64,000 nt of DNA from Carcharhinus amblyrhynchos (GCA_965287045.1 OZ336871.1:68138001-68202000), one strand, 5' to 3'. Positions 7,189 through 63,835 are shown, numbered from the stretch's first letter. Made by a program: numbers and translations. The notes: generated from the letters alone by a model not told the origin.

Positions 7189-7525
7189 GGGTGGCACAGT
7201 AGCACAATGGTTAGCACTGCTGCTTCACAGCTCCAGGAACCTGGGTTCGATTCCTGGCTTGGGTTACTGTCTGTGTGGAATTTGCACATTCTCCTCATGT
7301 CTGCGTGGGTTTCCTCCGAGTGTTCCGGTTTCCTCCCACAGTCCAAAGATGTGCAGGTGAGGTTGCTTGACCATGCTAAAAGTGCCCCTTAGTGTCCTGA
7401 GATGTGTGGGTTAGAGGGATTAGTGGATAAATATGTGGGGGTAGGACCTGGGTGGAATTGTGGTCGGTGCAGACTCAATGGGCAAAATGGCCTCTTTCTG
7501 CACTGCAGGGCTTATATGGCTTCTA
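7189..7525 (+). mobile_element. tRNA-derived V-SINE-like element, CR1-type tail
   Basis: B box GGGTTCGATTCC, full core and tail. Confidence 0.9.
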
Positions 7526-7639: not shown

Positions 7640-7978
7640 GGGGTAGCATAGTGGCACAGTGGTTAGCACTGCTGCCTCACAACGCCAGGAAACTTGATTC
7701 AATTCCTGGCTTGGGTCACTGGCTTTGTGGAGCTTGCACATTCTCCACGTGTCTGTGTGGGTTTCCTCTGGGTGCTTCAATTTCCTCCTACAGTCCAAAG
7801 ATTGCGGGTTAGGTTGATTGGCCATATTAAATTGCACCTTAGTGTCAGGGGGACTAGCTTGAGTAAATGCATGGGGTTACAGGGATAGGGCCTGGGTGGG
7901 ACTGTGGTCTGTGCAGACTTGATGCACCAAATGGCTTCCTTCTGCACTGTAGGATTCTATAAATGAGCATGATTCTAT
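7640..7978 (+). mobile_element. tRNA-derived V-SINE-like element, CR1-type tail
   Basis: A box TGGCACAGTGG, core, tail CCTTCTGCACTGTAGGATTCTAT. Confidence 0.9.
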
Positions 7979-9259: not shown

Positions 9260-11420
9260 AGAACATAGAAACATGAACAAGCCACTTGGCCCATCCACTC
9301 TGTTCTGGCACTTACTGAGATCATGATTGAACTATGATCTAAATTCTTATATCCACCTTTGCTCACGTCCTTGTAAACCTTTGGTAACAAAAATCTATCA
9401 ATCTCAAATTTAAAATTAACAATTAACCTACCATCAATTACTATTTGCAGAGAATTCCAAACTTATCCCATCTTTTGTATGTAAAAATGTTTTTTAATTA
9501 CAATCCCAAAAAGTCTATTTTAGACAATGTCCCTCATCCCCCTTACAAGTGGAATTAGTTTATGTCGACCCAATCTGTTCCCCTTAATATCCTGAAAACT
9601 TTGATCAATTCATCTATCAATTTTATAAATTCCAGGGAATACAACACAAGTATGTATAATTTCCCCTCCTAATTTAGCCTTTGAAATGTAGCTATCATTT
9701 GATAAATCCAATTCCCTCCATGGCCAATACATCTTTCTGAGGTGTGGTGTTCAGAGTGCTCACAGATGTGGTCTAGCCAGAGTTTTGTTTAGCTGTAATA
9801 AAATTAACCTCTTGTTCTCTAGTCCTGTAGACTTAAAGACTAGCATTCCATGAAAATAAAAGCAAAATACCATGGATGCTGGAAATCTGAAATAAAAGCA
9901 GAAAATGTTGGAAATCTCAACAGGTCTGGCAACATTTGTGCAGAGAGAAATAGAGCTAATGCTTTGAGTCTGTGAAAAATCAAAGGAACTTGAAAAGTAA
10001 ACTCTGAAGGAGAATCATACAGACTCAAAATGTTAATGCTGTTTCATTCTCCACAGATGCTGTCAGACCTGATGAGTTTTCCAGAACTTCCTGTTTTTAT
10101 TCCAGCATTCCGCTGGTCTTCTTTATTATTTTCTGCACTGATCCATAATATTTTAAATCTCTATATAAATGGACCCTGAGGTCAATTTGGATTTCCAATG
10201 GTTCTAGCTTTTCACTAACTAGAAATACTCTTCCATCTTTTTCTGGTCAAAGTAGATGACCTCACATTTTGCCTACAATGAACTTCAGTTTTACCCATTT
10301 GCTTTATTAATTAACATCGCTTTGTAAATTTACACTGTCACTTCCATAGCTCACAATATCACCTATATTTGTGTCTTCAGCAAATTTGAATATGTGACTG
10401 TTTATCCTATTACTACCTAAGTCATTAATAAATATGATGGATAGTTGAGAATCCAGCAGAGGTCTTTGCAAGACACCACTAGCCACATCTTGGCAATTAG
10501 AGCACCTTATCTCTAGTTTCTGTTTCCTGTCAAACAATTTCCAAAAAAAGTCAATAATTTTCTTCAATTCCATGAAGTTCAGCTTTGGTAATAATTTCTT
10601 ATGAGGGGCTTTATCAGATATCTTCTGGAAATCCATATAAATAACATCCATAGACATTTCCTCATCCAGTACTTTAGTCACCTCTTCACAAAATTCAACT
10701 ATGTTCTTCAGGCTGGACAGAGTTTTGACAAATTCACACTGGCGCTCTCTGATCAGCTAAAAATTTAAGGTGCTCTGTCACACTATCTTTAATCATATAT
10801 TCTAATTTCTTGACAACAGACATTGGTCAAACAAGCCTAGACTTCCATGGTTTCCCTCTATCACCTTTCTTGAACAACATGCTCAGTTTTCCAATCAAAA
10901 GGAATGCTTCTCAATCAAGATTATAGTTAGGGCATCCACAACGTTCTCAATTACTTCCCTTAAATCCTTGGGATGGAAACAATCAGGTCCTGGTGAGCTG
11001 TTGCTCTTAATTTTTTTCTTCTTTCCTGTTCTTTTGTTAATGTTAATTTTGGTGAATCGTTGTCCCCTTTCAATATTAGTTTTCTTGGATGTCCAATATG
11101 CTATCTTCTTACTCTACAGTAAATATTGACTCAAGCGAAGTACTCAACAATTCCCACCAGTTCTTTATTTTCATTTAAAACATCAATTGATCAGTTTTTA
11201 AGAGATCTCATTGTTCCTGATTATCCACTTTTTCTTACTATAATTTTAAAAGTATTTTTATTGATTTTAAAATCCTGTGTTTCTTTTCATAATCCCTTTT
11301 AAAGCATCTACGACCAGTTTTGTATATCTCTCAGTTTCCAAATCTGTGCCAGTTTGTGCATTTTTGCATGTTATTGTCTTTAAAAGTTTTATGATGCCCC
11401 TTTACCTCTTTAGGACTGGA
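9260..11420 (-). mobile_element. Old decayed CR1 LINE (ORF2 remnant and tail), interrupted at 9850-10110
   Basis: ORF 10307-10681 carries degenerate RT motifs (DVIYMDFQK..DK.PH, SGVLQ, IFINDL, KFAEDT); CR1-type tail at 9260-9350. Confidence 0.85.
9850..10110. repeat. Inverted pair of Penelope-like terminal-repeat fragments (fold-back)
   Basis: 9870-9975 (GATGCTGGAAATCTGAAAT...CAGGTCTGGCAACATTTGTG...TTGAGTCTGT) is the approximate reverse complement of 10015-10110. Confidence 0.75.
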
Positions 11421-37819: not shown

Positions 37820-38152
37820 TTTAAGTTTGAAGTTTTAAAGATTAAGTTTAAAGTTTATTTATTAGTGTCACAAGTAGGTTCGCATTAACACTGCAATGAA
37901 GTTACTGTGAAAATCCCGTAGTTGCCACACTCCAGCGCCTGTTCGGATACACTGAGGGAGAATTTAGCATGGCCAATGCACCTAACCAGCACACCTTTTG
38001 GACCGTGGAAGGAAACCAGAGCACCCGGAGGAAATCTACGCAGATGGAGGAGAACATGCAAATTCCACACAGACAGTGACCCGAGGCTGGAATTGAACCT
38101 GGGTCCCTGGCGCTATAACGCACCAGTGCTAATCACTGTACCACCATGCCAC
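37820..38152 (-). mobile_element. tRNA-derived V-SINE-like element with the Rex1-like tail
   Basis: Best-preserved copy of this subfamily; minus-strand tail TTTTCACAGTAACTTCATTGCAGTGTTAATGCGAACCTACTTGTGACACTAATAATAAACTTTAAACTT. Confidence 0.88.
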
Positions 38153-47035: not shown

Positions 47036-47171
47036 TACTCTGATGAAGGATCATCCAGACTCAAAATGTTGGCTCCATTCTCTCTCCACAGATGTTGTCA
47101 GACATGTTGAGATTTTCCAGCATTTTCTGTTTTTGTTTCAGATTCCAGCATCCACAGTATTTTGCTTTTAT
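47036..47171 (+). repeat. Penelope-like terminal-repeat fragment with a hammerhead-like core
   Basis: CTGATGAAGGATCATCCAGACTCAAAATGTT followed by the family body. Confidence 0.7.
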
Positions 47172-49014
47172 CTTAACATTTACCTTACTCTTTCTCTTAA
47201 TTTTTCATTTTGTGGCAAATATTTTCATTCTCCAGGAGTGATTAATTAGGCATTTGTAGGTTTGCACCTTTATACCCCGTTCAGCAATAAACATTCTGAG
47301 GTCAGATAAAATGTAAAGTTCCCTCATCTCTATAGTATCAATGAATGTTAACCCCATCCTCAGGAAAACAATCCTTACTGTACTAACATGAGATTTGCCT
47401 GTAGCCTCTGGTTGTATCGCAATTACTGCCATTTGGTTTTGGCTAGTTTTGCACTGTGGGGCCTTATTAGGAACAGAGTGAGACTGACAAACTCCATTAA
47501 GCCAGCAGAGAAAACAAAAAACTTCACCTCAATATTATGGGTTGGTCTCAAACAGGGTAAGGGTAAGATCCACCGAGAACCTTTTTAGTCTTATTTAATT
47601 TATAATCTTATTTGCACCTGTACAAGTTCTGCTAAGCCAGATGTCTCTTTCTATCTTTGGAAAGGGAGTATGCATTATTTCATCCACAATAAAAAAAATT
47701 AATTAATCACACTACAAAATGCAAATATTAAAACAGGTCACTTATTGGCAAAACTTGAAAAATTCTGAAGCTAAGATCATAGCCATTGTAACAAGGCATC
47801 ATGACCAGGTCTTCCAGGAGGATGATCAAATAGTAATACTGTCAATTTTTTAAACAACATGGCAAAGCTATGACTAAGATCTCAGTCCATTCAACTTTCG
47901 GTGATAAGTTTTTTTCTCATTACCCCAAGTATGTCACAATGCTATCTTGGCATTGAAGCCCAAAAGTCATCAAAAGCAGCTTCCAAACTTAGTCAAATGG
48001 GGATCATTTTACTGTCTTTTGTTAACCTTGAGTTTTGAATGATAATACATTAGCATGTATTTATATATTTTTCTTGGTTAGTACACAGGTGTTTTATAAA
48101 ATAAAACATGAAACAATAAAACAATCAGAATTATTTCTCAAATTTCTCAGAACAGAAATGTCCAAACTTAAACATTCAACAGCAACAACACGTTTAATTT
48201 GCTGTAACACAAACATTTTTAAAAATTTTTGAAAAAGGAAAAGGTCTGACCTTAAACATACCCAAATGTAAGGGGAATATTATTGCCTGACAAAAAGGAA
48301 AAATATTGTCACTCAAATAAAACTGGCTCCATTTTATCTTCTCTCATTCTTTTCACTAAAATTTACGATAAGTAAAAACATGTTAAAAAGTACAATAGAT
48401 GCTTGTTTGAAATCAAGATTTTGTTCAAATTTACAAATCAAAGAATGACATCGGATGCTCACTTATGACCTTAATCCAGTGATTGAAACCTATTTACAGC
48501 TGAAAAAGTACAAAACGAACAATGAACTTGGTCATAAAATCAATACTGATATCAAGAATGTTGTAGAGAAATAAATAATTCAAGGTATTATTGTATCACT
48601 AATCATTCTTGACATTGGAGAAGCACAAAATAAAAGTTTTTATTTTTTTACCGGTATTTGTAAGGCATTTTTATGAATGTGTTAGATTCTTTTCCCATCT
48701 TTTCCAAAGGCACGATGACAGTATCAGCCTGACCCCAGTTCTGAAGGTTTCAATGCTTTTAGAACACCCATCCTTCATGAATAAACAAAATGGTTTCAGC
48801 ATATCACTAAAAATCTACGAGTACTTCAGCCTCCAAAGAAAACAACCAGCGATAGAGTCAAATGAAAGAAATTTGTGAAAATATTTCTGACCTGTAAGAC
48901 ATTCCTCTATTTGAAAAAATAACTTTATAGATGTGTCTTTTTAAGTGTTCCAAGATCAAGAGAAATTGTCACTATTCGCAGGCTGCTCTGTCTGAAAGAT
49001 TCAGCTGATTTATA

Positions 49015-51556: not shown

Positions 51557-54398
51557 CTCGACAATCTAAAGAAGTTGGGGGGGGGCGTGTGTGGGGAGGA
51601 ATCTGGGGAAGGCGAGACGGATCGCGAGGTTAAGGAACTCTGCTCATCCCCAGCCCAGTGACACACACTCCCCTACACCCTCCCTCCCCCACAGATATCC
51701 AGCAACACACACTCCACATACTCCCCCTTACAGGTCCCAAAATGGCAACACAGCTCCATCCAATCCCCCACCCACTCACAAACACATAATCAGACCTATC
51801 CAATAGTGGCCACAGACAGTGCTACTTGACAAATCCCGAGGCTGCAGCACTCCCACTTTGGAGAGTTTCCAGCTTATCCCCCACCTGCAATTGTGCTTGC
51901 TGCTGCCAGCACTGGGACCCAGAGTTAGTGCTAAGACCTGAATCAGCATCCTCAGCCAGGTCTGTCCTGAGAGGCCTAAATTGGACCCCATGAATGGCAG
52001 CAGCCTCCCACACCACCAACCCCACGCCCCCCCCGGCCCCCACACACACTCGCAGGCTCCCCCAACCTGAAATGCATCATGGCCACCATGAAACATACCC
52101 CTCTGAGCAGCATGGAGCCATTTGAAAGCAGAAACTTACCCACTTGCTCACCCTCTCTGCTCAAGCGCCTGAATGCGACTTTTACACTTGAGGTGTTTTC
52201 CTGACCAATCCAGCTGCAGCGAATGAGGTGATTAAAGCAGGTGAGCTTGGAAGATTGGGAGTGAAGCTCGCTAATTATATTGAGATGAATGCAAAAAAAA
52301 ATGCAAATTGACATTTTTGCCCATAGGATGGGTCCTGATCACGCTGATATCTTTTTCTTTATAAAATGGGAATGGGTGTGAAAGCGAGCACCATTCCTGC
52401 TAATTACATCATGCCCAATTTTGCAACAATTTTCCACTGCAAAACAGGTGCGATAAGGCTGTTAAATTCTGCCCCACATCTCAGAACACTGTGGGTCAGT
52501 AAACAGAACATTATGGGGTAAACTTTCTGCCCCACTCATTGCAAGAATCATAGCATGGTGGCGGGGGCAAAAAATTTAGCAGATCATTTAAGCATCTGCT
52601 GACTTTGGGCAGGAATTTCGGGTCTTGGGCATGCTCAACTGGAAAATTCCACCTGATTGTGTGCTCAGTTTTCCTCATAGAGTGGAAATATTTATTATAT
52701 GTACTATATAGTTTACGATGAGTTTAACATTGGCATTTCAATTCCAGGAGCATCGTGGAAATGATTCAGGGAAATAAGGTTAAAAATTTGGAAACCTTCC
52801 ATTTTCTACTCACCTGGAAGCTAGATGCACTTCAGAATTTCATTGTTTGTTTCCTACCATATCAAAATAAATAAGATAGTCCTTATGCCATTATTTGTTA
52901 GGAAAGATTTGGAGTTGCTTTAAATGGGGACACTCATAGATCAGGGCCACTGCGCATGCGCAGACTCTGGCATGAATAGGCCCAAACCCCTCAGCCCCTC
53001 CTGGTTTTTAATGAGATTCACAATTGTGACCCCTGCATTGCACAAAGTGCAGAGATTCAAGTCTGAAGCTGCACTGAAGAAACAGTCATGATCTAGAAGA
53101 GTTTTCCCACCAATTTAGCACTTTTGGGAGAATCGCCCCCATTGTCCCCAATTGCACGCTTTTAAATCTGATGGTTATAAATTCAACCACAGCTGATACA
53201 TTACATGGTTAGTCATTCACTGCCAGATATGACTCAGCATTGTCATGTCATATGATACTTTGTCCTTCCTTAGTCTCCAACTAGTGAAGGATTACCTTTG
53301 AAAGCAAGGGCAACCCACCACTCATTTTCTCCTTGACTCCTGGCTTCTGTCATTTTCTTTCCTTCCACTCTTTCCACCAATCTCTTTACTCTCAGCTGTA
53401 ATACTGGATACAAACAGCTCATGGATTTCTTTGTTTCCAAACTATCCATGTAGCTGTCTCTGCCGCTACTTTTCTTTTGTGCCCTACTGCTTCAGATCTG
53501 TTCCACACACTCTAGTTTTCAGGATTCTTTGTACACAGATTTTTTTCTCATCTCTTATACTCCTCAATAGCTTCTTTGGTGAAACCCACCTTCTGCCCCT
53601 TGATTCCCTTCCCCACCCCACACCTGATATTTGACTGTCCCACTGAAACCTCCAAGTTACTGAATGTTGTTAATAGCTTCCTTTGTGTAGGTATATCCTT
53701 TTGTTTTCAAAACCACTTCCCAACTTTGCTACTTGACCCTTAACCCATTCCTCTTTCTCATTTATATGCTGCTATTTGGTGATATTATCCACAGGCAACG
53801 GATCAATTTCTTCTAGTGTGCTACATACGGCTTTATTTGTTGACTATTTATCTTGGTCACAGAGCTACCTCCATTATACAAAGAACAAAGAACAACCCAG
53901 CATGGGAAACAGGCCCTTCGGCCCAACGAGCCCGTGCCGCCGCATCACCCTACACCTATTCTACCCTGTGTGTCTACAAATGGAACCCCTAACTTGCCAG
54001 ATACAGGGGAGAATAGTGTCAATTTGGTAAAACCAATCAGCCTAAGAGCACATCTTTGGGGTGTGGGAGGAAACCGGAGCGCCCGGAGGAAACCCACGCA
54101 ACCACAGGGAGAATGCGCAAACTCCCACAGACACAGGCCCAAATCCATGTATCTGCACAGCTAGCAGTGCTAGTCACCGAGCTGTTGCGGCGTCCGTCTA
54201 CCGGTCCATGATCAAGCACACACACCGACACGAAGTACTAGGCCACTCCCAGAACCTCCAAGAGCAGCCCACGCACAACCCACCGTGTGCATGCCCCTTG
54301 TTTGACAACGAGGTGGACCTCCACCTGCGGAGTGAAAAGACAAAAACGTTAATCTTACAAGACTGCTTTTCTGGTGTCTCCCGAGGTTCTAACCTTAT

Positions 54399-57257
54399 TT
54401 AATAGCCCCTACCATAACCCTCCATCCTCGTTTCACTCATGTGCCTATCTAACTGAACCTTAAATGAGTCCAACGTTTCTGCCTCCACCACCCTACTCGG
54501 TAGCGCGTTCCATACCCCCACAACTCTCTGCGTAAAGAACCTTCCTCTCACATCCAAATTATACCTCTCCCCTCTCACCCTTAAATCATGCTCTCTCGTA
54601 TTTGTACCCAGTCTAGGGAGCAGTCTCTCACTATTAACTCTATCTATTCCCTTCAGTATCTTATATAGCTCTATCATGTCCCCCCTCAATCTCCGTCTTT
54701 CCAAGGAGAATAGTCCCAGTTTCTCCAACCTTTCCTCGTAACCCAGCCCCTCCATGCCAGGCAACATCCTGGTAAACCTCCTCTGCACCCTTTCCAGAGA
54801 CTCCACGTCCTTCCGGTAGTAAGGTGACCAGAACTGGACGCAGTACTCCAAATGCTGTCTAACCAACGTTCTATACAACTGAAGCATTAGACGGCAGCTT
54901 TTATACTCTATACCCCTTCCTATAAAGGCTAGCAATCCATAAGCCTTCCTAACAACCTTCTCCACTTGTGTCGCAACCTTCATGGATTTGTGAACCTGCA
55001 CTCCCAGGTCCCTCTGTATTTCTATACTCCTAATTTGTCTACCTTTTATCACATAGCTCCTCTCTGCATTATTCCTTCCAAAATGCATCACCTCGCATTT
55101 GTCAGGATTAAATTCCACCTGCCACTTATCTGCCCAATGCACCAACCTATCTATATCCTGTTGTATCACCTGACAATCCCCTTCAGTACCCGCCAACCCT
55201 GCCATCTTGGTGTCATCAGCAAACTTGCTGATCACACCAACTACGCTCTCTTCCAAGTCATTTATGTATACTACAAAGAGGAGAGGTCCCAGTACTGAGC
55301 CCTGCGGCACACCACTGGTCACTGGCCTCCAGCCCGACAAGGTCCCCTCTACAACTACCCTCTGTCTCCTATTACCCAGCCAGTTCTCAATCCACCTAGC
55401 TACCTGACCTCGTATCCCATGCGCCTTAACCTTTTCTACCAGCCTACCATGAGGGACTTTGTCAAACGCCTTACTGAAATCCATATAGATGACATCAACG
55501 GCTCTCCCATCGTCAACCGTTTTTGTCACCTCCTCAAAGAATTCCACAAGATTCATAAGGCAAGACCTCCCTCTAACAAAGCCATGTTGCGTATCCCTAA
55601 TCAGATCGCAGTGCTCCAAATGCTCATACATCCTACCCCTAAGTATTTTTTCCATTAATTTCCCTACCACCGATGTCAAACTCACCGGTCTATAATTTCC
55701 AGGGTTATCCCTACTACCTTTTTTGAACAGCGGTACCACATTTGCTACCCTCCAGTCTTCTGGGACCTCACCTGTGTCCAAAGAAGAGACAAAGATTTGT
55801 GCCAGAGGCCCAGCAATTTCATCTTTCACCTCCCTAAGCAGCCTGGGATAAATACCATCAGGCCCCGGAGCTTTATCCATCCTCACGCTACCTAAAAGCC
55901 CTAGCACTTCCTCCCTCGTAATAGATATTTCCTGTAACTGATCCTCAGCTCCCTCCAAGAGACCGCACGATTCCGAACCTCTCTCCTTCGTGAATACCGA
56001 CGCAAAGTATTCATTCAGGAGCTCCCCCATTCCCTCCGACTCAATACATAACTCCCCACTTTTGTCCCTAAGAGGACCAATTTTCCCTCTAACTACTCTC
56101 TTGCTCCTAATATAGGAATAAAATGCCTTTGGATTTTCCTTAATCCTACCAGCCAAAGCCATTTCATGCCCTCTCTTCGCCCTTCTAACTCCCCTTTTTA
56201 GCTCCCTCCTACTCTCTCTATATTCCTCCAGCGCACTCTCCGTACCCAGTCGTTTCGACCTAACATACGCCTCCCTCTTCTTCCTGACCAAGTCTTCAAT
56301 ACCCCCTGTAATCCACAGCTCTCTAATCCTACCTTTCCCATCCTTCCGCTTAACCGGAACATACCTCCCCTGCAACCATTTCATTTTGCCCTTAAACGCC
56401 TCCCACTTGCCAACCGTGGACTTGCCAGCTAATAGTCCCTCCCAATCAGTGTCCTGCAGCTCCCTCCTAATCCTGCTATAGCTCGCCTTTCCCCAGTTCA
56501 GCACACTCCCATTTGGCCGGCACTCGTCCCTTTCCATTTTTATCCTAAAGTAGACGGACTTGTGGTCACTATTAGCCACATGCTCGCCTACCTCTACCTC
56601 ACCCACCTGCCCCGGCTCATTACCCAACACTAAATCCAGTATAGCCCCTCCCCTAGTCGGGCTAGTTACATACTGCTCTAGAGACCCTTCCAAAACACAT
56701 TTCACAAACTCCTCTCCCTCTGTACCCCCAGCTCTAGGCCCCCTCCAATTCACTCCAGGAAGATTAAAGTCACCCACTACAACCACTCCATTCTTCCTGC
56801 ACCTGTCCAAAATGCCCCTGCAAATGCTTTCCTCCACTGACCTCGGGCTGTTGGGTGGCCTATAGTACACCCCTAGCAACGTAATCTCTCCCTTTTTATT
56901 CCTCAACTCCACCCACAGTGACTCAATCCCTGTCTCTTCCATATTGTCCTCCCTCTGCACTACTGTGATGTTTTCCTTTACTAACAGTGCCACCCCTCCA
57001 CCTCTCTTCAACCCTCCTCTGTCACGCCTAAAACACTTGTACCCAGGAACATTCAGCTGCCAGTCCTGCCCTTCCCGTAACCACGTCTCCGTTACAGCCA
57101 CCACATCTAACTGCCTCACAAACATCAAGGCCCTAAGCTCATCCGTTTTCCCTGCCACACTCCTAGCATTGAAACAGACACAGTTCAACCCACGAGTGTC
57201 CCTCAGAACCTCCTTCTCCCTGATAATTTTCCTTTCACCCGACTCTCTACCAGCCAC
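54399..57257 (-). CDS. LINE ORF2: apurinic-like endonuclease plus reverse transcriptase (952 aa counted from a GTG)
   Basis: APE motifs NARS, ETWL, VYYRPP, GDFN, LDLV, SDH; RT motifs NYRPVSLTS, QHGF, DFSKAFDKVPH, GVPQGSVLGPLLF, FADD; CR1-type C-terminus LEYCVQFWSP...FFTQRVVGVWNALP. The frame is open from 57293. Confidence 0.95.
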   Translation of the reverse strand: MAGRESGERKIIREKEVLRDTRGLNCVCFNARSVAGKTDELRALMFVRQLDVVAVTETWLREGQDWQLNVPGYKCFRRDRGGLKRGGGVALLVKENITVVQREDNMEETGIESLWVELRNKKGEITLLGVYYRPPNSPRSVEESICRGILDRCRKNGVVVVGDFNLPGVNWRGPRAGGTEGEEFVKCVLEGSLEQYVTSPTRGGAILDLVLGNEPGQVGEVEVGEHVANSDHKSVYFRIKMERDECRPNGSVLNWGKASYSRIRRELQDTDWEGLLAGKSTVGKWEAFKGKMKWLQGRYVPVKRKDGKGRIRELWITGGIEDLVRKKREAYVRSKRLGTESALEEYRESRRELKRGVRRAKRGHEMALAGRIKENPKAFYSYIRSKRVVRGKIGPLRDKSGELCIESEGMGELLNEYFASVFTKERGSESCGLLEGAEDQLQEISITREEVLGLLGSVRMDKAPGPDGIYPRLLREVKDEIAGPLAQIFVSSLDTGEVPEDWRVANVVPLFKKGSRDNPGNYRPVSLTSVVGKLMEKILRGRMYEHLEHCDLIRDTQHGFVRGRSCLMNLVEFFEEVTKTVDDGRAVDVIYMDFSKAFDKVPHGRLVEKVKAHGIRGQVARWIENWLGNRRQRVVVEGTLSGWRPVTSGVPQGSVLGPLLFVVYINDLEESVVGVISKFADDTKMAGLAGTEGDCQVIQQDIDRLVHWADKWQVEFNPDKCEVMHFGRNNAERSYVIKGRQIRSIEIQRDLGVQVHKSMKVATQVEKVVRKAYGLLAFIGRGIEYKSCRLMLQLYRTLVRQHLEYCVQFWSPYYRKDVESLERVQRRFTRMLPGMEGLGYEERLEKLGLFSLERRRLRGDMIELYKILKGIDRVNSERLLPRLGTNTREHDLRVRGERYNLDVRGRFFTQRVVGVWNALPSRVVEAETLDSFKVQLDRHMSETRMEGYGRGY

Positions 57258-57277
57258 ATCCCCACCCCCCCTCCTTA

Positions 57278-57425
57278 TTAGTTTAAACCATTCCTAAACA
57301 CCCCAGCTAACCTCCCCGCTAAGACACTAGTTCCCCTCCCGTTCAAATTCTCCCCACCCCTCCTGTACAGTTGCCCTTCTCTCCTAAACACCTCCCAGTG
57401 ATCCACAAAAGTAAAGCCCTCTGTA
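57278..57425 (-). pseudogene. 3' end of CR1 ORF1 (SGNH-esterase-like C-terminus), 5'-truncated
   Basis: Manual translation EGFTFVDHWEVFRREGQLYRRGGENLNGRGTSVLAGRLAGVFRNGLN*, matching the CR1 ORF1 pattern GFxFxDHW...LYxxDGLHLNxxG...LN*. Confidence 0.8.
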
Positions 57426-57760: not shown

Positions 57761-58485
57761 CTATATTGTTTCCTAGTCTACCAATACATGGTTCAATATT
57801 GTTTTATTTATTTATTTAATTCTTCTAACTGGTCCCTTAGAATGTTCTCCACACTAAAGACTATACACAAACAAATTGTTGTTAAATTGCTCACATTATG
57901 AAAAAGGACAAAGGGGAAAGAGGAAAAACCCTCCATTTGTCTTTTCCTTGTATTTCCTCTCCTCATCCTCCATGTTGTTTTTTGGGATATAAAGTAAACT
58001 TAAATAATGACTAATTCTCAAGTTGTGTAAGACCTTCACCCATACTTGAAAGAAGTCGATATTCCCATGTCATAATAGGCTTCTAGAATTATATCAATCA
58101 CAGGCTACCACACAGTAATTTTTTTCATTGCCCGATGTAAAGTTGAATTTTTAGCATATCTTCACATGTGCACTGCCTTTCCCTTTGGGGAATGGTGGGG
58201 AAAATATTGGAAAGATTCTCAAGTTGATTATCAGCCCATTGAACCACATTATGAATGTGGCCAATGAGCCATGACATCTGATTTGAATCCACAGCTTCGG
58301 ATCCAGACATATAAGTGTTATCACTGTACCACATGACCTCCTGTATGAACTGCATATATCACTATTTCAGATGATCATATTGAATTTGTGAAACAATCTT
58401 TCAGCTGAAGTTGAAACATGTGTCATCATTTATTTGATCATCAAAGCTGAATTTTATCTGCTCTGTTCTGTACATAGTTGCTGAC

Positions 58486-58639
58486 CTGTTCTCTTTCGGT
58501 GAGTGTTCCTGTTTGGTATCCACTGACAGTGATGCCATGGCAGTCACTGTTTCTGTTTCTTTTCTCTCCAGGCTCTGGGCATCTTTGAGAGACCAGTTAA
58601 CTTCTGAGGCATATTGTTGTATAGATTTCCAATATTTTC
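58486..58639 (-). CDS. hdac9: Histone deacetylase 9, penultimate coding exon ((R)KYWKSIQQYASEVNWSLKDAQSLERKETETVTAMASLSVDTKQEHSPKEN(R))
   Basis: Acceptor TTTTCAG| and donor |GTCAG; 154 nt, phase 1 to phase 2, compatible with both neighbouring exons. Contains KYWK and the class IIa nuclear-export region ETETVTAMASLSV. Confidence 0.94.
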
Positions 58640-61600
58640 CTGAAAATGAAAATGTAGATTTTTTTTATGTCCAATGATGAAAAGTGCTGTAAAACTGATT
58701 TAAAATCCCCACTCTAGATATCATAATTATCCCATCATTTTCTTCAACAATTTTCAATATTAATCAGGAAATATAGGGTGGCATTTAATGGAGGCAACCA
58801 GACTCCAGTCAGTAAAGCTCCAGTGTTACCTGTCAGGAAGTGTCAATGCCTCTCTCAGGAGTCAGTTAAATGGCACTGTATATGCGAACACATAATCACG
58901 GTGCCCTGAAGTCTAGAGTAAGCCCCATGTGCAATCAAAACTTATGCCATCTATAGGAAGGAAACAAGAAATGGGGCTACCTCTTTCCTGTGGATTAGGA
59001 AGTGTTAAAATTCTTCCTAGGGCCTCTGATAGAGTGCTGTACAATCATTTACTGGGTGTTGCCCATAGTGGCTTAGCTGGTGATGCTCCCAATTCAACAT
59101 AATTGCATTGTTGAGATCTGATGCTTACTGCAACCACAATGTATACGTTGCCCCATAACCTACCTTTCATTAGCTCAACATGTAACAACAGTGTCATGAG
59201 ATTTTATCCTAGAAATTCATAGTTCATGTTCTGCTGAATTAAGTTCTTCAAGCATTGCAATAAATCATGAAAGTTCTCAAGGATTTTGCATCTACTCATT
59301 AATCACTGATTCTGTGAAACCTCATTTGACTTGCAAAAAGGAAGTATTTTCATGGGAACTCCCAGCTAGTGTTTCAGATAACTGGTTCTAAGTTCTCAGT
59401 GAGAAGATTCAATGAATGAACCTCAAGCTAAATGATGCAGCGAGTGTACACATTCTCCTCTCACCTTGTGGGATATAGGATCCAATCTGACCCATTGATG
59501 GAATTAAGGTGTTCTTTCTTTGCTACCTTCAAGAATTCTTTGTGAGATAATTTTGATAAATTGCAGACTAGTCTATATTAGACATGGAGCTGGATTTTAA
59601 GGCTCCATAGGTCCATGCTTTTGCTTTCCTCACCTTTCCAGCCTGCACCCAACTGGGTCACCATAGTTCATGGGAGTGGGAGGTGTAGAAGGTGTGGTAG
59701 GTGAGGAGCCAACCAGCCAGCCCCACCCAGTCTTAGGTCTATTGAGGGCCTTAGATGGCCAGTTATTGCCCACTTAAGCTCCTCAATTCATCTCTACTGC
59801 CACAAAATGCTGGGTAGTAGCAGGTGGGTGAGCGTGAAGGCCATTTTTTAAACAGCTTTGTTGAAAAGGCTGGAAGAAAGGGGACACATAACACGGGGGG
59901 GAAGGGTCCCATTTATGCATCAGGTGCATTGCCCCCAAGATGTTACCCTCCATCATTTGTTCCTTCCCAGCTGGCCTCTTAAACATGCCCCAGCTCCTTT
60001 ACCCTCATCCTTACATTCTCTGTTACTTCCTTGTCCAATACCCAGATTTATGTCTCTCCAGTGGCCATGTCCTCTTCATTCCAGGATTTGATTGTGGCCC
60101 CAAAAGACCCAGCATAGAGTTCCGCAATGCTGGGATTGCTAGAGCTGCCAGCCAATCAGGTTGGCCAGTAGTTCTCAAGATGGAATTTCCTCCCATTGAG
60201 GGTTGGAAGGCAAGCCCTCAGTTTATTTTGGCTACCAGCAGCGTGTCATCATTGCAAGATAGTCTTATTTACAGTTGGTTGATTTGGAATGGACTTTCCT
60301 ACTGGGTGTGGGGAACAATGCCTCCATAAAATCCAGCCCATTGATCAATAACACAAAACTTGCATTGAACTAGCAATGCCACTCAAAGAGGTGACAGGGA
60401 TGGTTTCCGTAGGAAATGGAATCTGATGCTTTAGATTTTTATCTGGGATTGAAACTAATACACATTTTAGAGAATAGTGGGAACATTACCATTAGCTTTA
60501 CTATAATTGTCCAGTGATTGCTTGATACTGTCAAGTGCGAGTGTCTGAAATGAGAAACGGTTCCATTCCCCAGTTTTAACACCCCTTATCTCAAAAGCAC
60601 ACAGAGAAGCCAAAACATTTTAAAGAGAAAAAGGAGCAACTTACAGTATTCTATAATATCCTACTTTTTACATTTATGCAATTAGAATATGTTAAAATTG
60701 GCTTATGATGTTTGGAAATTGAAAACAAACATATCGGCATTTGGCTGAATCAAACTTTTTTTTAATAGACTATGGTAACTATAGTAACTTTATAAGTTAT
60801 GTATGATTCAAATAGCTTTTCAAGCTGTGTTATATAATGCTCCCAATAATATTTAACTAAGAAATAATAAGACTCTGATTTTAGGTGGATCATAATGGCA
60901 GGGAGCCATGTAGCGGTGTAGCTAGGTGATGGGAATGGAATACGAGGGATGATGCAGTCAAATACAGCATAATTAAAAACAAATGAGTAAACGTATTATA
61001 ATTTTTCAAAATTACATTAGATCTGATTTTGGCATGAGTTTAATGGAATTCTGCAAGATAAGGGAGAACATGTTTCTTTTTGCCAAGTCTAGCTAAACTG
61101 AACAATTTAATGCAAATATTTTAAATAAATGGATCAAATCAACCTAGTGCAATCCAAGCCACCTAATGCTGCTCCTTCTCACTCACATGGTCACGTAATT
61201 CTGGACAACATTTCAATTGTTTCACTGAATCGTTTCAACTTCCACAGCAAATGGTTCTGTGTAAAGCAATGGGATACACTCAGCAAGGTGAAGAGAGGAG
61301 CAGACTACAACTTTTAATCAAGTCTTATGTCCTTTAGAATATTTCAGTCCCACCGTTTGAGATTGGGATATCTCTATTAACATAGTGGTAGCAGGATTTG
61401 GGGTAAAGTCAAGAGCAATTGGAGCGAACGGAGTAGGGTGGAATCATTAACCGCACTGATTGCTTCCCGTCCAATTGGTTTAAAGAGTAGTGGAAACTTT
61501 GTGCATGAGTGGAAGACTGATAATATAAATTCAAATTTGCCAGGATAGCAGAAACTGCTTCAATGGCAAGAGGGAGCTGCAGTATTACCTTCTGGGATGT

Positions 61601-63680: not shown

Positions 63681-63693
63681 TGTCAATTATTTT

Positions 63694-63835
63694 AAAAGCA
63701 AGTTACTGTGGATGCTGGAATTTGAAACCAAAAGGGAAAATGCTGGAAAATCTCAGCAGGGCTGGCAGCATCTGTAAGGAGAGAAAAGAGCTGACATTTT
63801 GACTCCAGATGACCCTTTGTCAAAGCTTTGTCAAA
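63694..63835 (-). repeat. Penelope-like terminal-repeat fragment
   Basis: AAAAGCAAGTTACTGTGGATGCTGGAA...AAAATGCTGGAAAATCTCAGCAGG.CTGGCAGCATCTGT...GATGACCCTTTGTCAAAG. Confidence 0.7.

Follow-up and report, generated by a model that had tools for sequence, protein, structure and literature searches.

A conserved slippery heptamer at the ORF1-ORF2 junction of CR1 retrotransposons and its probable role in -1 ribosomal frameshifting

Introduction

The window analysed here is a stretch of 64,000 nucleotides (nt) from Carcharhinus amblyrhynchos (GCA_965287045.1 OZ336871.1:68138001-68202000), which carries on its minus strand a copy of the long interspersed nuclear element (LINE) CR1. This copy's second open reading frame (ORF), ORF2, lies in the -1 frame relative to ORF1, and its first in-frame ATG is found inside the endonuclease region. 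The locus raises the question of how the ORF2 protein (ORF2p) is made. The translation of ORF2 in LINEs is a long-open question (PMC3894237). LINE ORF1 and ORF2 are usually viewed as unfused (PMC3708506), and in most vertebrates the dominant retrotransposons belong to the CR1 group (PMC13343379).

An initial annotation of the window had proposed that a slippery heptamer and a downstream G-tract join the two ORFs by frameshifting. The slippery motif, the -1 phase of ORF2, the missing AUG and conservation at the nucleotide level are found in the family of the window copy and, for the most part, in divergent CR1 groups. These properties suggest that -1 programmed ribosomal frameshifting yields ORF2 as part of an ORF1-ORF2 fusion, a reading to which we assign a rough probability of 0.85.

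The junction in the window and in its own family

The CR1 copy (53878-57422, minus strand) belongs to a young family; over 3547 nt it shares 96% identity with another copy in the 2.9-Gb host genome. It is 5'-truncated at 57422, and the ORF1 remnant (57278-57422, minus strand), as read from its translation, holds the final ~47 codons, from an SGNH/OSK esterase domain, and ends in Gly-Leu-Asn-stop. The CR1 ORF1-ORF2 junction is present as proposed, but with only these ORF1 codons left, the slip-site claim concerns the CR1 family and not translation of the window copy.

On the minus strand, the heptamer T_TTA_AAC (57281-57287) is in the X_XXY_YYZ phase of ORF1 and stands directly before the ORF1 stop codon TAA, which is followed by a second TAA (57275-57280). 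U_UUA_AAC is the slippery heptamer of coronaviruses. ORF2 is intact and open in the -1 frame for 964 codons, stop to stop (54399-57293, minus strand), with an APE endonuclease at amino acids 41-244 and a reverse transcriptase at amino acids 526-745; the preceding in-frame TAG (57296-57294) lies upstream of the heptamer. A linker in the -1 frame leads from the heptamer to the endonuclease (57189-57280) and is followed by the NARS codons (57170-57159) and, 3' of these, by the first in-frame ATG (57125-57123). Rechecking on the sequence reproduced the positions initially reported for the TAG, the heptamer and the ATG. The GTG at 57257-57255, which had been called the annotated start of ORF2, is the start set by an ORF finder and not an annotation.

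The window's family was represented by the best 30 of 40 scored copies, taken from 1621 candidates, and 29 of these were analysed for phase. The junction of the window copy is 98-100% identical to that of the 40 best genomic copies. Four contig sets from sequencing runs show no joint at the junction and, among the rows listed, no variant in the heptamer; as contigs only, they are not used as evidence here. TTTAAAC is present in all 30 copies, one of which has a mutated stop, and part of the family has TAG in place of the second TAA. In 26/29 copies no stop interrupts the -1 frame between the heptamer and the endonuclease, the other three having one extra base; all 26 have a linker that is both open and free of Met before NARS. 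Loss of the heptamer or of the phase among family copies, or an in-frame AUG before the endonuclease, had been named at the outset as grounds for giving up the frameshift reading, and the family displays none of these. A further detail, that the ORF2 frame opens only a few codons before the heptamer, holds for the window copy and its TAG, which is a variant present in 9/29 copies. The frame opens 13 codons upstream in the other 20, likewise without ATG.

If translation began at the family's first AUG, the endonuclease would lack its NARS strand, which carries an essential Asn according to work on the L1 endonuclease. This AUG is not conserved in other CR1 groups. A conserved non-AUG start, either at GTG 57257 or at the Leu codon before NARS, was also considered and rejected, as neither is conserved across groups.

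The heptamer in divergent CR1 loci

Loci were gathered by ORF1 protein similarity together with a metagenome scan, to avoid selection on the motif, and the end of ORF1 was located by a hidden Markov model of the esterase that stops nine codons before the terminal Leu-Asn. There were 176 loci, of which 161 reach the esterase end and 15 do not; seven pairs are identical at the junction, and 158 loci have enough sequence. The exact TTTAAAC is found in 125/158 loci and a version with one mismatch in 24, of which nine are almost identical to each other and share one contig. Nine loci have neither form, two of them weak, distant matches. In the ORF2 sequence downstream, totalling 147,000 nt, the same word is found four times, compared with 125/158 loci in a 42-nt window at the end of ORF1, where its frequency is far above chance. 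Since the 29 loci of the window's family were retrieved with a DNA query that includes the motif, the count was also made without them and gives 96/129 exact heptamers. In a later search with a protein query not ending in Leu-Asn, 13/14 new loci were exact. The CR1 groups within the genome are 62-79% identical in DNA, and blastn finds no match between them and the metagenome loci.

The contig with the mismatched copies (C32) holds at least nine near-identical dead copies (L070, L073, L080, L084, L085 and L087-L090) that share the same two stops and a mutated heptamer; they were probably multiplied by segmental duplication.

Constraint at the nucleotide level

Depending on the group, the codon before TTA is GGT, GAT, ACT, GCT, AGT, TAT, TGT or CGT. 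The residue before Leu-Asn is thus Gly, Asp, Thr, Ala, Ser, Tyr, Cys or Arg, and the third base is always T. The stop codon after the heptamer also varies by group between TAA, TAG and TGA, and therefore the conserved word is not a fixed TAA/TAG word. Within the heptamer, Leu is encoded by TTA in 13/13 and Asn by AAC in 12/12 representatives; in these elements as a whole TTA makes up 15% of Leu codons and AAC 41% of Asn codons. Among 14 representatives, chosen with the motif present and including six with broken endonuclease frames, only 2/36 columns are codon-invariant, and these are the Leu and Asn of the heptamer. Representatives chosen blind to the motif keep a single codon elsewhere in 1/55 near-invariant degenerate columns, and not one of 170 columns with four or more amino acids keeps one third base (median protein identity 34-42%). 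These comparisons indicate that the heptamer is conserved beyond coding need, i.e. by a nucleotide and not a protein constraint. The heptamer is thus kept at synonymous positions and with it the -1 phase across divergent CR1 groups, which is the pattern the frameshift proposal had called for.

Linker phase and start codons

The distance from the heptamer to NARS, by column count, is 117, 144, 144, 153, 162, 162 or 192 nt, each a multiple of three. Linker length and sequence differ between groups and the phase is kept, with 7/8 multi-copy families and, copy by copy, 80/122 in phase. There is no AUG before NARS in 37/68 open copies, including 26/26 of the window's family, and where a Met is present it is found at 12 different positions. 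Between the previous stop of the -1 frame and the heptamer, the commonest class of 16/17 groups has no AUG; in F4 one class is tied.

In single copies, L187:789-3281 (L066/L187), L186:910-3612 and P0019, an indel near the junction brings ORF1 and ORF2 into one frame, with 831 and 901 open codons. No family of such fused copies was seen, and we do not take them as support.

A G-rich motif downstream of the heptamer

A possible G-quadruplex (G4) stimulator had been suggested six nt after the heptamer. The G-tract is conserved at a fixed position, but a stable quadruplex is not. Over 17 groups the frequency of G is 0.91-0.95 at +11 to +15 and 0.78-0.89 at +18 to +20, compared with a background of 0.37. 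What stays constant is GGGGG-RN-GG, which begins 11 nt 3' of the heptamer; in the window copy the motif, GGGGG-RN-GG(G), covers +11 to +20, at 57260-57270 on the minus strand, and is a candidate 3' stimulator. Position +11 falls on the third base of codons whose residues vary, and +14 on the wobble position of Gly; conservation at these third positions indicates that the G motif exceeds coding need.

Predicted G4 folds are three-tier in two of the 17 junctions, two-tier in seven and absent from eight, and the window copy has a two-tier fold only (z 0.1). A conserved three-tier G4 6-8 nt after the heptamer is therefore rejected. In reporters, where UUUAAAC has served as a shift site, U_UUA_AAC with a 3' G4 6-8 nt downstream gives ~7% -1 shifting (PMC3919603), and by analogy a weak G4 could act as a stimulator in some groups. 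A stable 3' hairpin 5-9 nt downstream of the heptamer was not found: no fold in the 17 junctions has a z score below -2, and a search of Rfam gave no match at the junction.

[quoted passage not shown] The two motifs differ in that the PRRSV motif is C-rich and its shift is mainly -2, whereas the CR1 motif is G-rich.

Esterase proteins and published consensus sequences

The wider range of the signal was assessed with 104 representatives of protein clusters (less than 50% identity) that reach the esterase end, from 150 listed. Their C-termini are Leu-Asn (LN) in 52, Gly-Asn (GN) in nine and other in 43. The residue before LN has codons able to end in U in 51/52 proteins and is K/E/Q/M/W in 1/52; nearby, K/E/Q/M/W make up 17% of residues (nominal P 7e-4, on data that are not independent). 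The residue before GN, taken over all 32 proteins with this end and not the representatives alone, is Q (30), K or S, each with a codon able to end in G. The Q-G-N ends, read from proteins alone, fit a predicted switch from U_UUA_AAC to G_GGA_AAC. No related loci were found in the genome and viral contig collections. The GN group includes crab (decapod) proteins, and the LN group includes those of a lizard, turtles and an eel. Other esterase ORF1s (P0072, P0096, P0104, P0185, P0131 and P0152) end in F-F-R/H, K-N or E-N; these ends could represent further types of slippery heptamer, again as read from the proteins.

The supplement of PMC13343379, with entries cut at 400 nt, was searched by selection on the motif, with species read from abbreviations. 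By eye, 17/23 matches to TTTAAACTA in the entries seen are at the end of ORF1. These consensus sequences are from crocodilian, frog, coelacanth, bowfin, chimaera, shark and ray, with one fish Crack element, and a lizard CR1 consensus in the same supplement has the TGA form of the junction.

Proposed mechanism and its standing

Under the frameshift reading, most ribosomes would stop at the end of ORF1 and release the ORF1 protein (ORF1p). A minority, with UUA in the P site and AAC in the A site, would slip back by one base, bypass the stop (then read as CUA or CUG) and traverse the variable linker into the endonuclease and reverse transcriptase. The pause would most likely come from the +11 G motif, bound by protein or as a weak G4, together with the adjoining stop. 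Slippage would then set a low ratio of ORF2 to ORF1 products, as with Gag-Pol. We favour -1 frameshifting because it explains the heptamer and its phase, the constant T at the wobble position, the freedom in the stop codon, the variable yet in-phase linker, the missing AUG and the GN variant. The Gag-Pol-like ORF1-ORF2 fusion that had been envisaged for this CR1 draws support from the motif, the phase and the missing AUG, from which we infer frameshifting.

Several observations weigh against this reading. Counts over CR1 groups are not independent, as the groups are related, and part of the CGT/TGT/CAT variation before TTA is likewise dependent, being CpG decay. Family F6, with four degraded copies, has a heptamer-to-NARS distance of 188 nt and is out of phase; copy by copy, 42/122 are out of phase, 19 of these in one old family with a variable G-run length. 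Some Met is found before NARS in 31/68 open copies, and in one family an in-frame AUG at codon 25 past the heptamer is fixed (14/14 copies). No conserved hairpin or pseudoknot was found in the 17 junctions, with plain-fold z scores of -1.9 to +1.5 and pseudoknots not modelled explicitly. A long-range partner of the G-tract also failed to appear, duplex energies being within the range of shuffled sequences in 8/9 elements; the exception is L184, with an energy below that of 20 shuffles. Finally, 43/104 esterase representatives end in neither LN nor GN, and thus the signal is not universal among esterase ORF1s.

The strongest competitor, to which we give little credence, is termination followed by AUG-independent reinitiation, which has been considered for mammalian L1. 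Ribosomes would restart near the ORF1 stop, in the -1 frame and at a non-AUG codon, and release free ORF2p, with the conserved words acting as a reinitiation signal. This would explain why the -1 phase is fixed, why the linker is open and why the stop adjoins the motif, and there are precedents: initiation of L1 ORF2 is regarded as independent of its own AUG (PMC5009743), and SART1 uses UAAUG coupling (PMC3894237; PMC10275272). TAATG with an ATG in frame with ORF2 does occur at a few CR1 junctions, among them L047 and a catshark consensus. However, reinitiation does not explain the exact X_XXY_YYZ word ahead of the stop, the wobble T that never varies or the change to Q-G-N, and the codon that follows the stop in the -1 frame is variable (ATA, GTT, GAT, GAA, ATT or GGT). 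Coupling of the SART1 type was rejected as such, since an AUG at or next to the ORF1 stop is absent from the window's family and from most groups and is only sporadic elsewhere.

A still less probable reading places the signal at the DNA or RNA level, as an internal TATA-like box with a GC box, a splice, packaging or ORF1p-binding signal, or as slippage of RNA polymerase or reverse transcriptase. ORF2 would then be translated from a shorter or spliced RNA by way of a downstream AUG. TTTAAA followed by a G-run does resemble promoter words, and some groups have an AUG in the linker. The first AUG of the window's family lies after the NARS strand, however, and it has no conserved counterpart in other groups; a DNA signal would need neither the codon phase of ORF1 nor the -1 phase of the linker, and runs of three T and three A are presumably short for polymerase slippage. 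Least credible of all, and largely refuted by the motif-blind codon comparison, is that the Leu-Asn C-terminus is kept for the function of the ORF1 protein, with its codons fixed by descent or codon bias: half of the esterase representatives end in LN and the groups share ancestry, but synonymous sites elsewhere are saturated and TTA is a minor Leu codon in these elements.

Relation to known systems

The frameshift reading has close parallels. Retroviral gag-pol and coronavirus ORF1a/1b likewise have an X_XXY_YYZ word at the end of the upstream ORF and a polymerase ORF in the -1 frame without its own start, and slippage sets the ratio of structural to enzyme products in these viruses (PMC5009743), a role that is proposed for CR1. 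Unlike retroviruses and coronaviruses, CR1 is an element without long terminal repeats (non-LTR), with no protease domain found in the ORF2 domain search, no conserved pseudoknot or hairpin, and a stop directly after the heptamer. Among LINEs, Dictyostelium TRE5-A and TRE3-A are of the APE type, and a legend in a review states that their ORF2 requires a -1 frameshift (PMC5911963). They belong to another clade and kingdom, and the passage gives neither a slippery site nor an experiment. L1 and SART1 likewise have a bicistronic LINE RNA and low ORF2 output (PMC3894237). They make a separate ORF2p after termination, whereas the CR1 junction has no conserved AUG and has a slippery heptamer.

No report of CR1 frameshifting was found in the literature searched, and an earlier mention in Haas 1997, Kajikawa 1997, Kapitonov 2003, Alisch 2006, Kojima 2005 or Repbase is possible. 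CR1 is not mentioned in the text examined of a 2016 frameshifting review, nor is frameshift or overlap mentioned in the main text of a 2026 survey of vertebrate CR1. The sole paper found that combines non-LTR elements, ribosomal frameshift and CR1 refers, in the part seen, to frameshift in retroviruses. What the present analysis adds is the G motif at a constant +11 position, together with the rejection of a conserved G4, the use of three stop codons and the covariation seen in Q-G-N.

If CR1 ORF2 is expressed in this way, its product would be redefined as an esterase-endonuclease-reverse transcriptase fusion, CR1 annotation and the constructs used for expression in assays would change, and a large class of -1 frameshifting in cellular genomes would be added, possibly with a new type of stimulator. 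The conserved slippery site offers a direct and cheap test. More speculatively, CR1 elements from crabs to birds may share an ancient -1 cassette that makes a Gag-Pol-like fusion and is stimulated by a protein on the single-stranded +11 G motif; we regard this wider proposal as tentative and rather doubtful. Were it true, whatever binds at +11, be it a host G-run protein or ORF1p, would act as a mobility switch for CR1.

Architecture of the CR1 element and other features of the window

The assignment to CR1 is based on the domains of ORF1 and ORF2 and on the match, by eye, of the junction to published CR1 consensus sequences. ORF2 matches PF03372, PF14529 and PF00078. The C-terminus of the ORF1 remnant (...FRNGLN*) is assigned to the CR1 SGNH/OSK esterase ORF1, which when complete, as in the longer copy L019, has 297 amino acids and consists of a Cys/His-rich N-terminus and the esterase domain. 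In Pfam, OSK (PF17182) is above the cut-off for L019 and Lipase_GDSL_2 (PF13472) below it. The ORF1 protein is 41-63% identical to ORF1-type proteins of sharks and rays, and its named relatives are all from these animals. In L019:750-1643, an ORF1 of the window's family, the SGNH catalytic words are lost (GDG for GDS, GEGD for GTND and RGGEN for DGLH). Esterase activity seems dispensable for this family, because it has spread recently without these words.

The 3' untranslated region (53878-54398, minus strand) ends in short TTCTTTG repeats and is common to copy L184 up to 53878. No target-site duplication was found around the window copy. A part of this region, 54040-54150, is 75-83% similar to 7268-7354, 7711-7834 and 37973-38075 of the window, and resembles a core of shark short interspersed nuclear elements (V-SINE/HE1). 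Other repeat fragments, at 10048-10111, 47077-47173 and 63693-63790, give short matches (78-87%) to L177 sequence that lies upstream of its ORF1. At 58401-58664, on the minus strand, an open stretch of 87 codons stands behind a pyrimidine-rich AG and is possibly a host exon, in which case the CR1 copy would sit in an intron in sense orientation.

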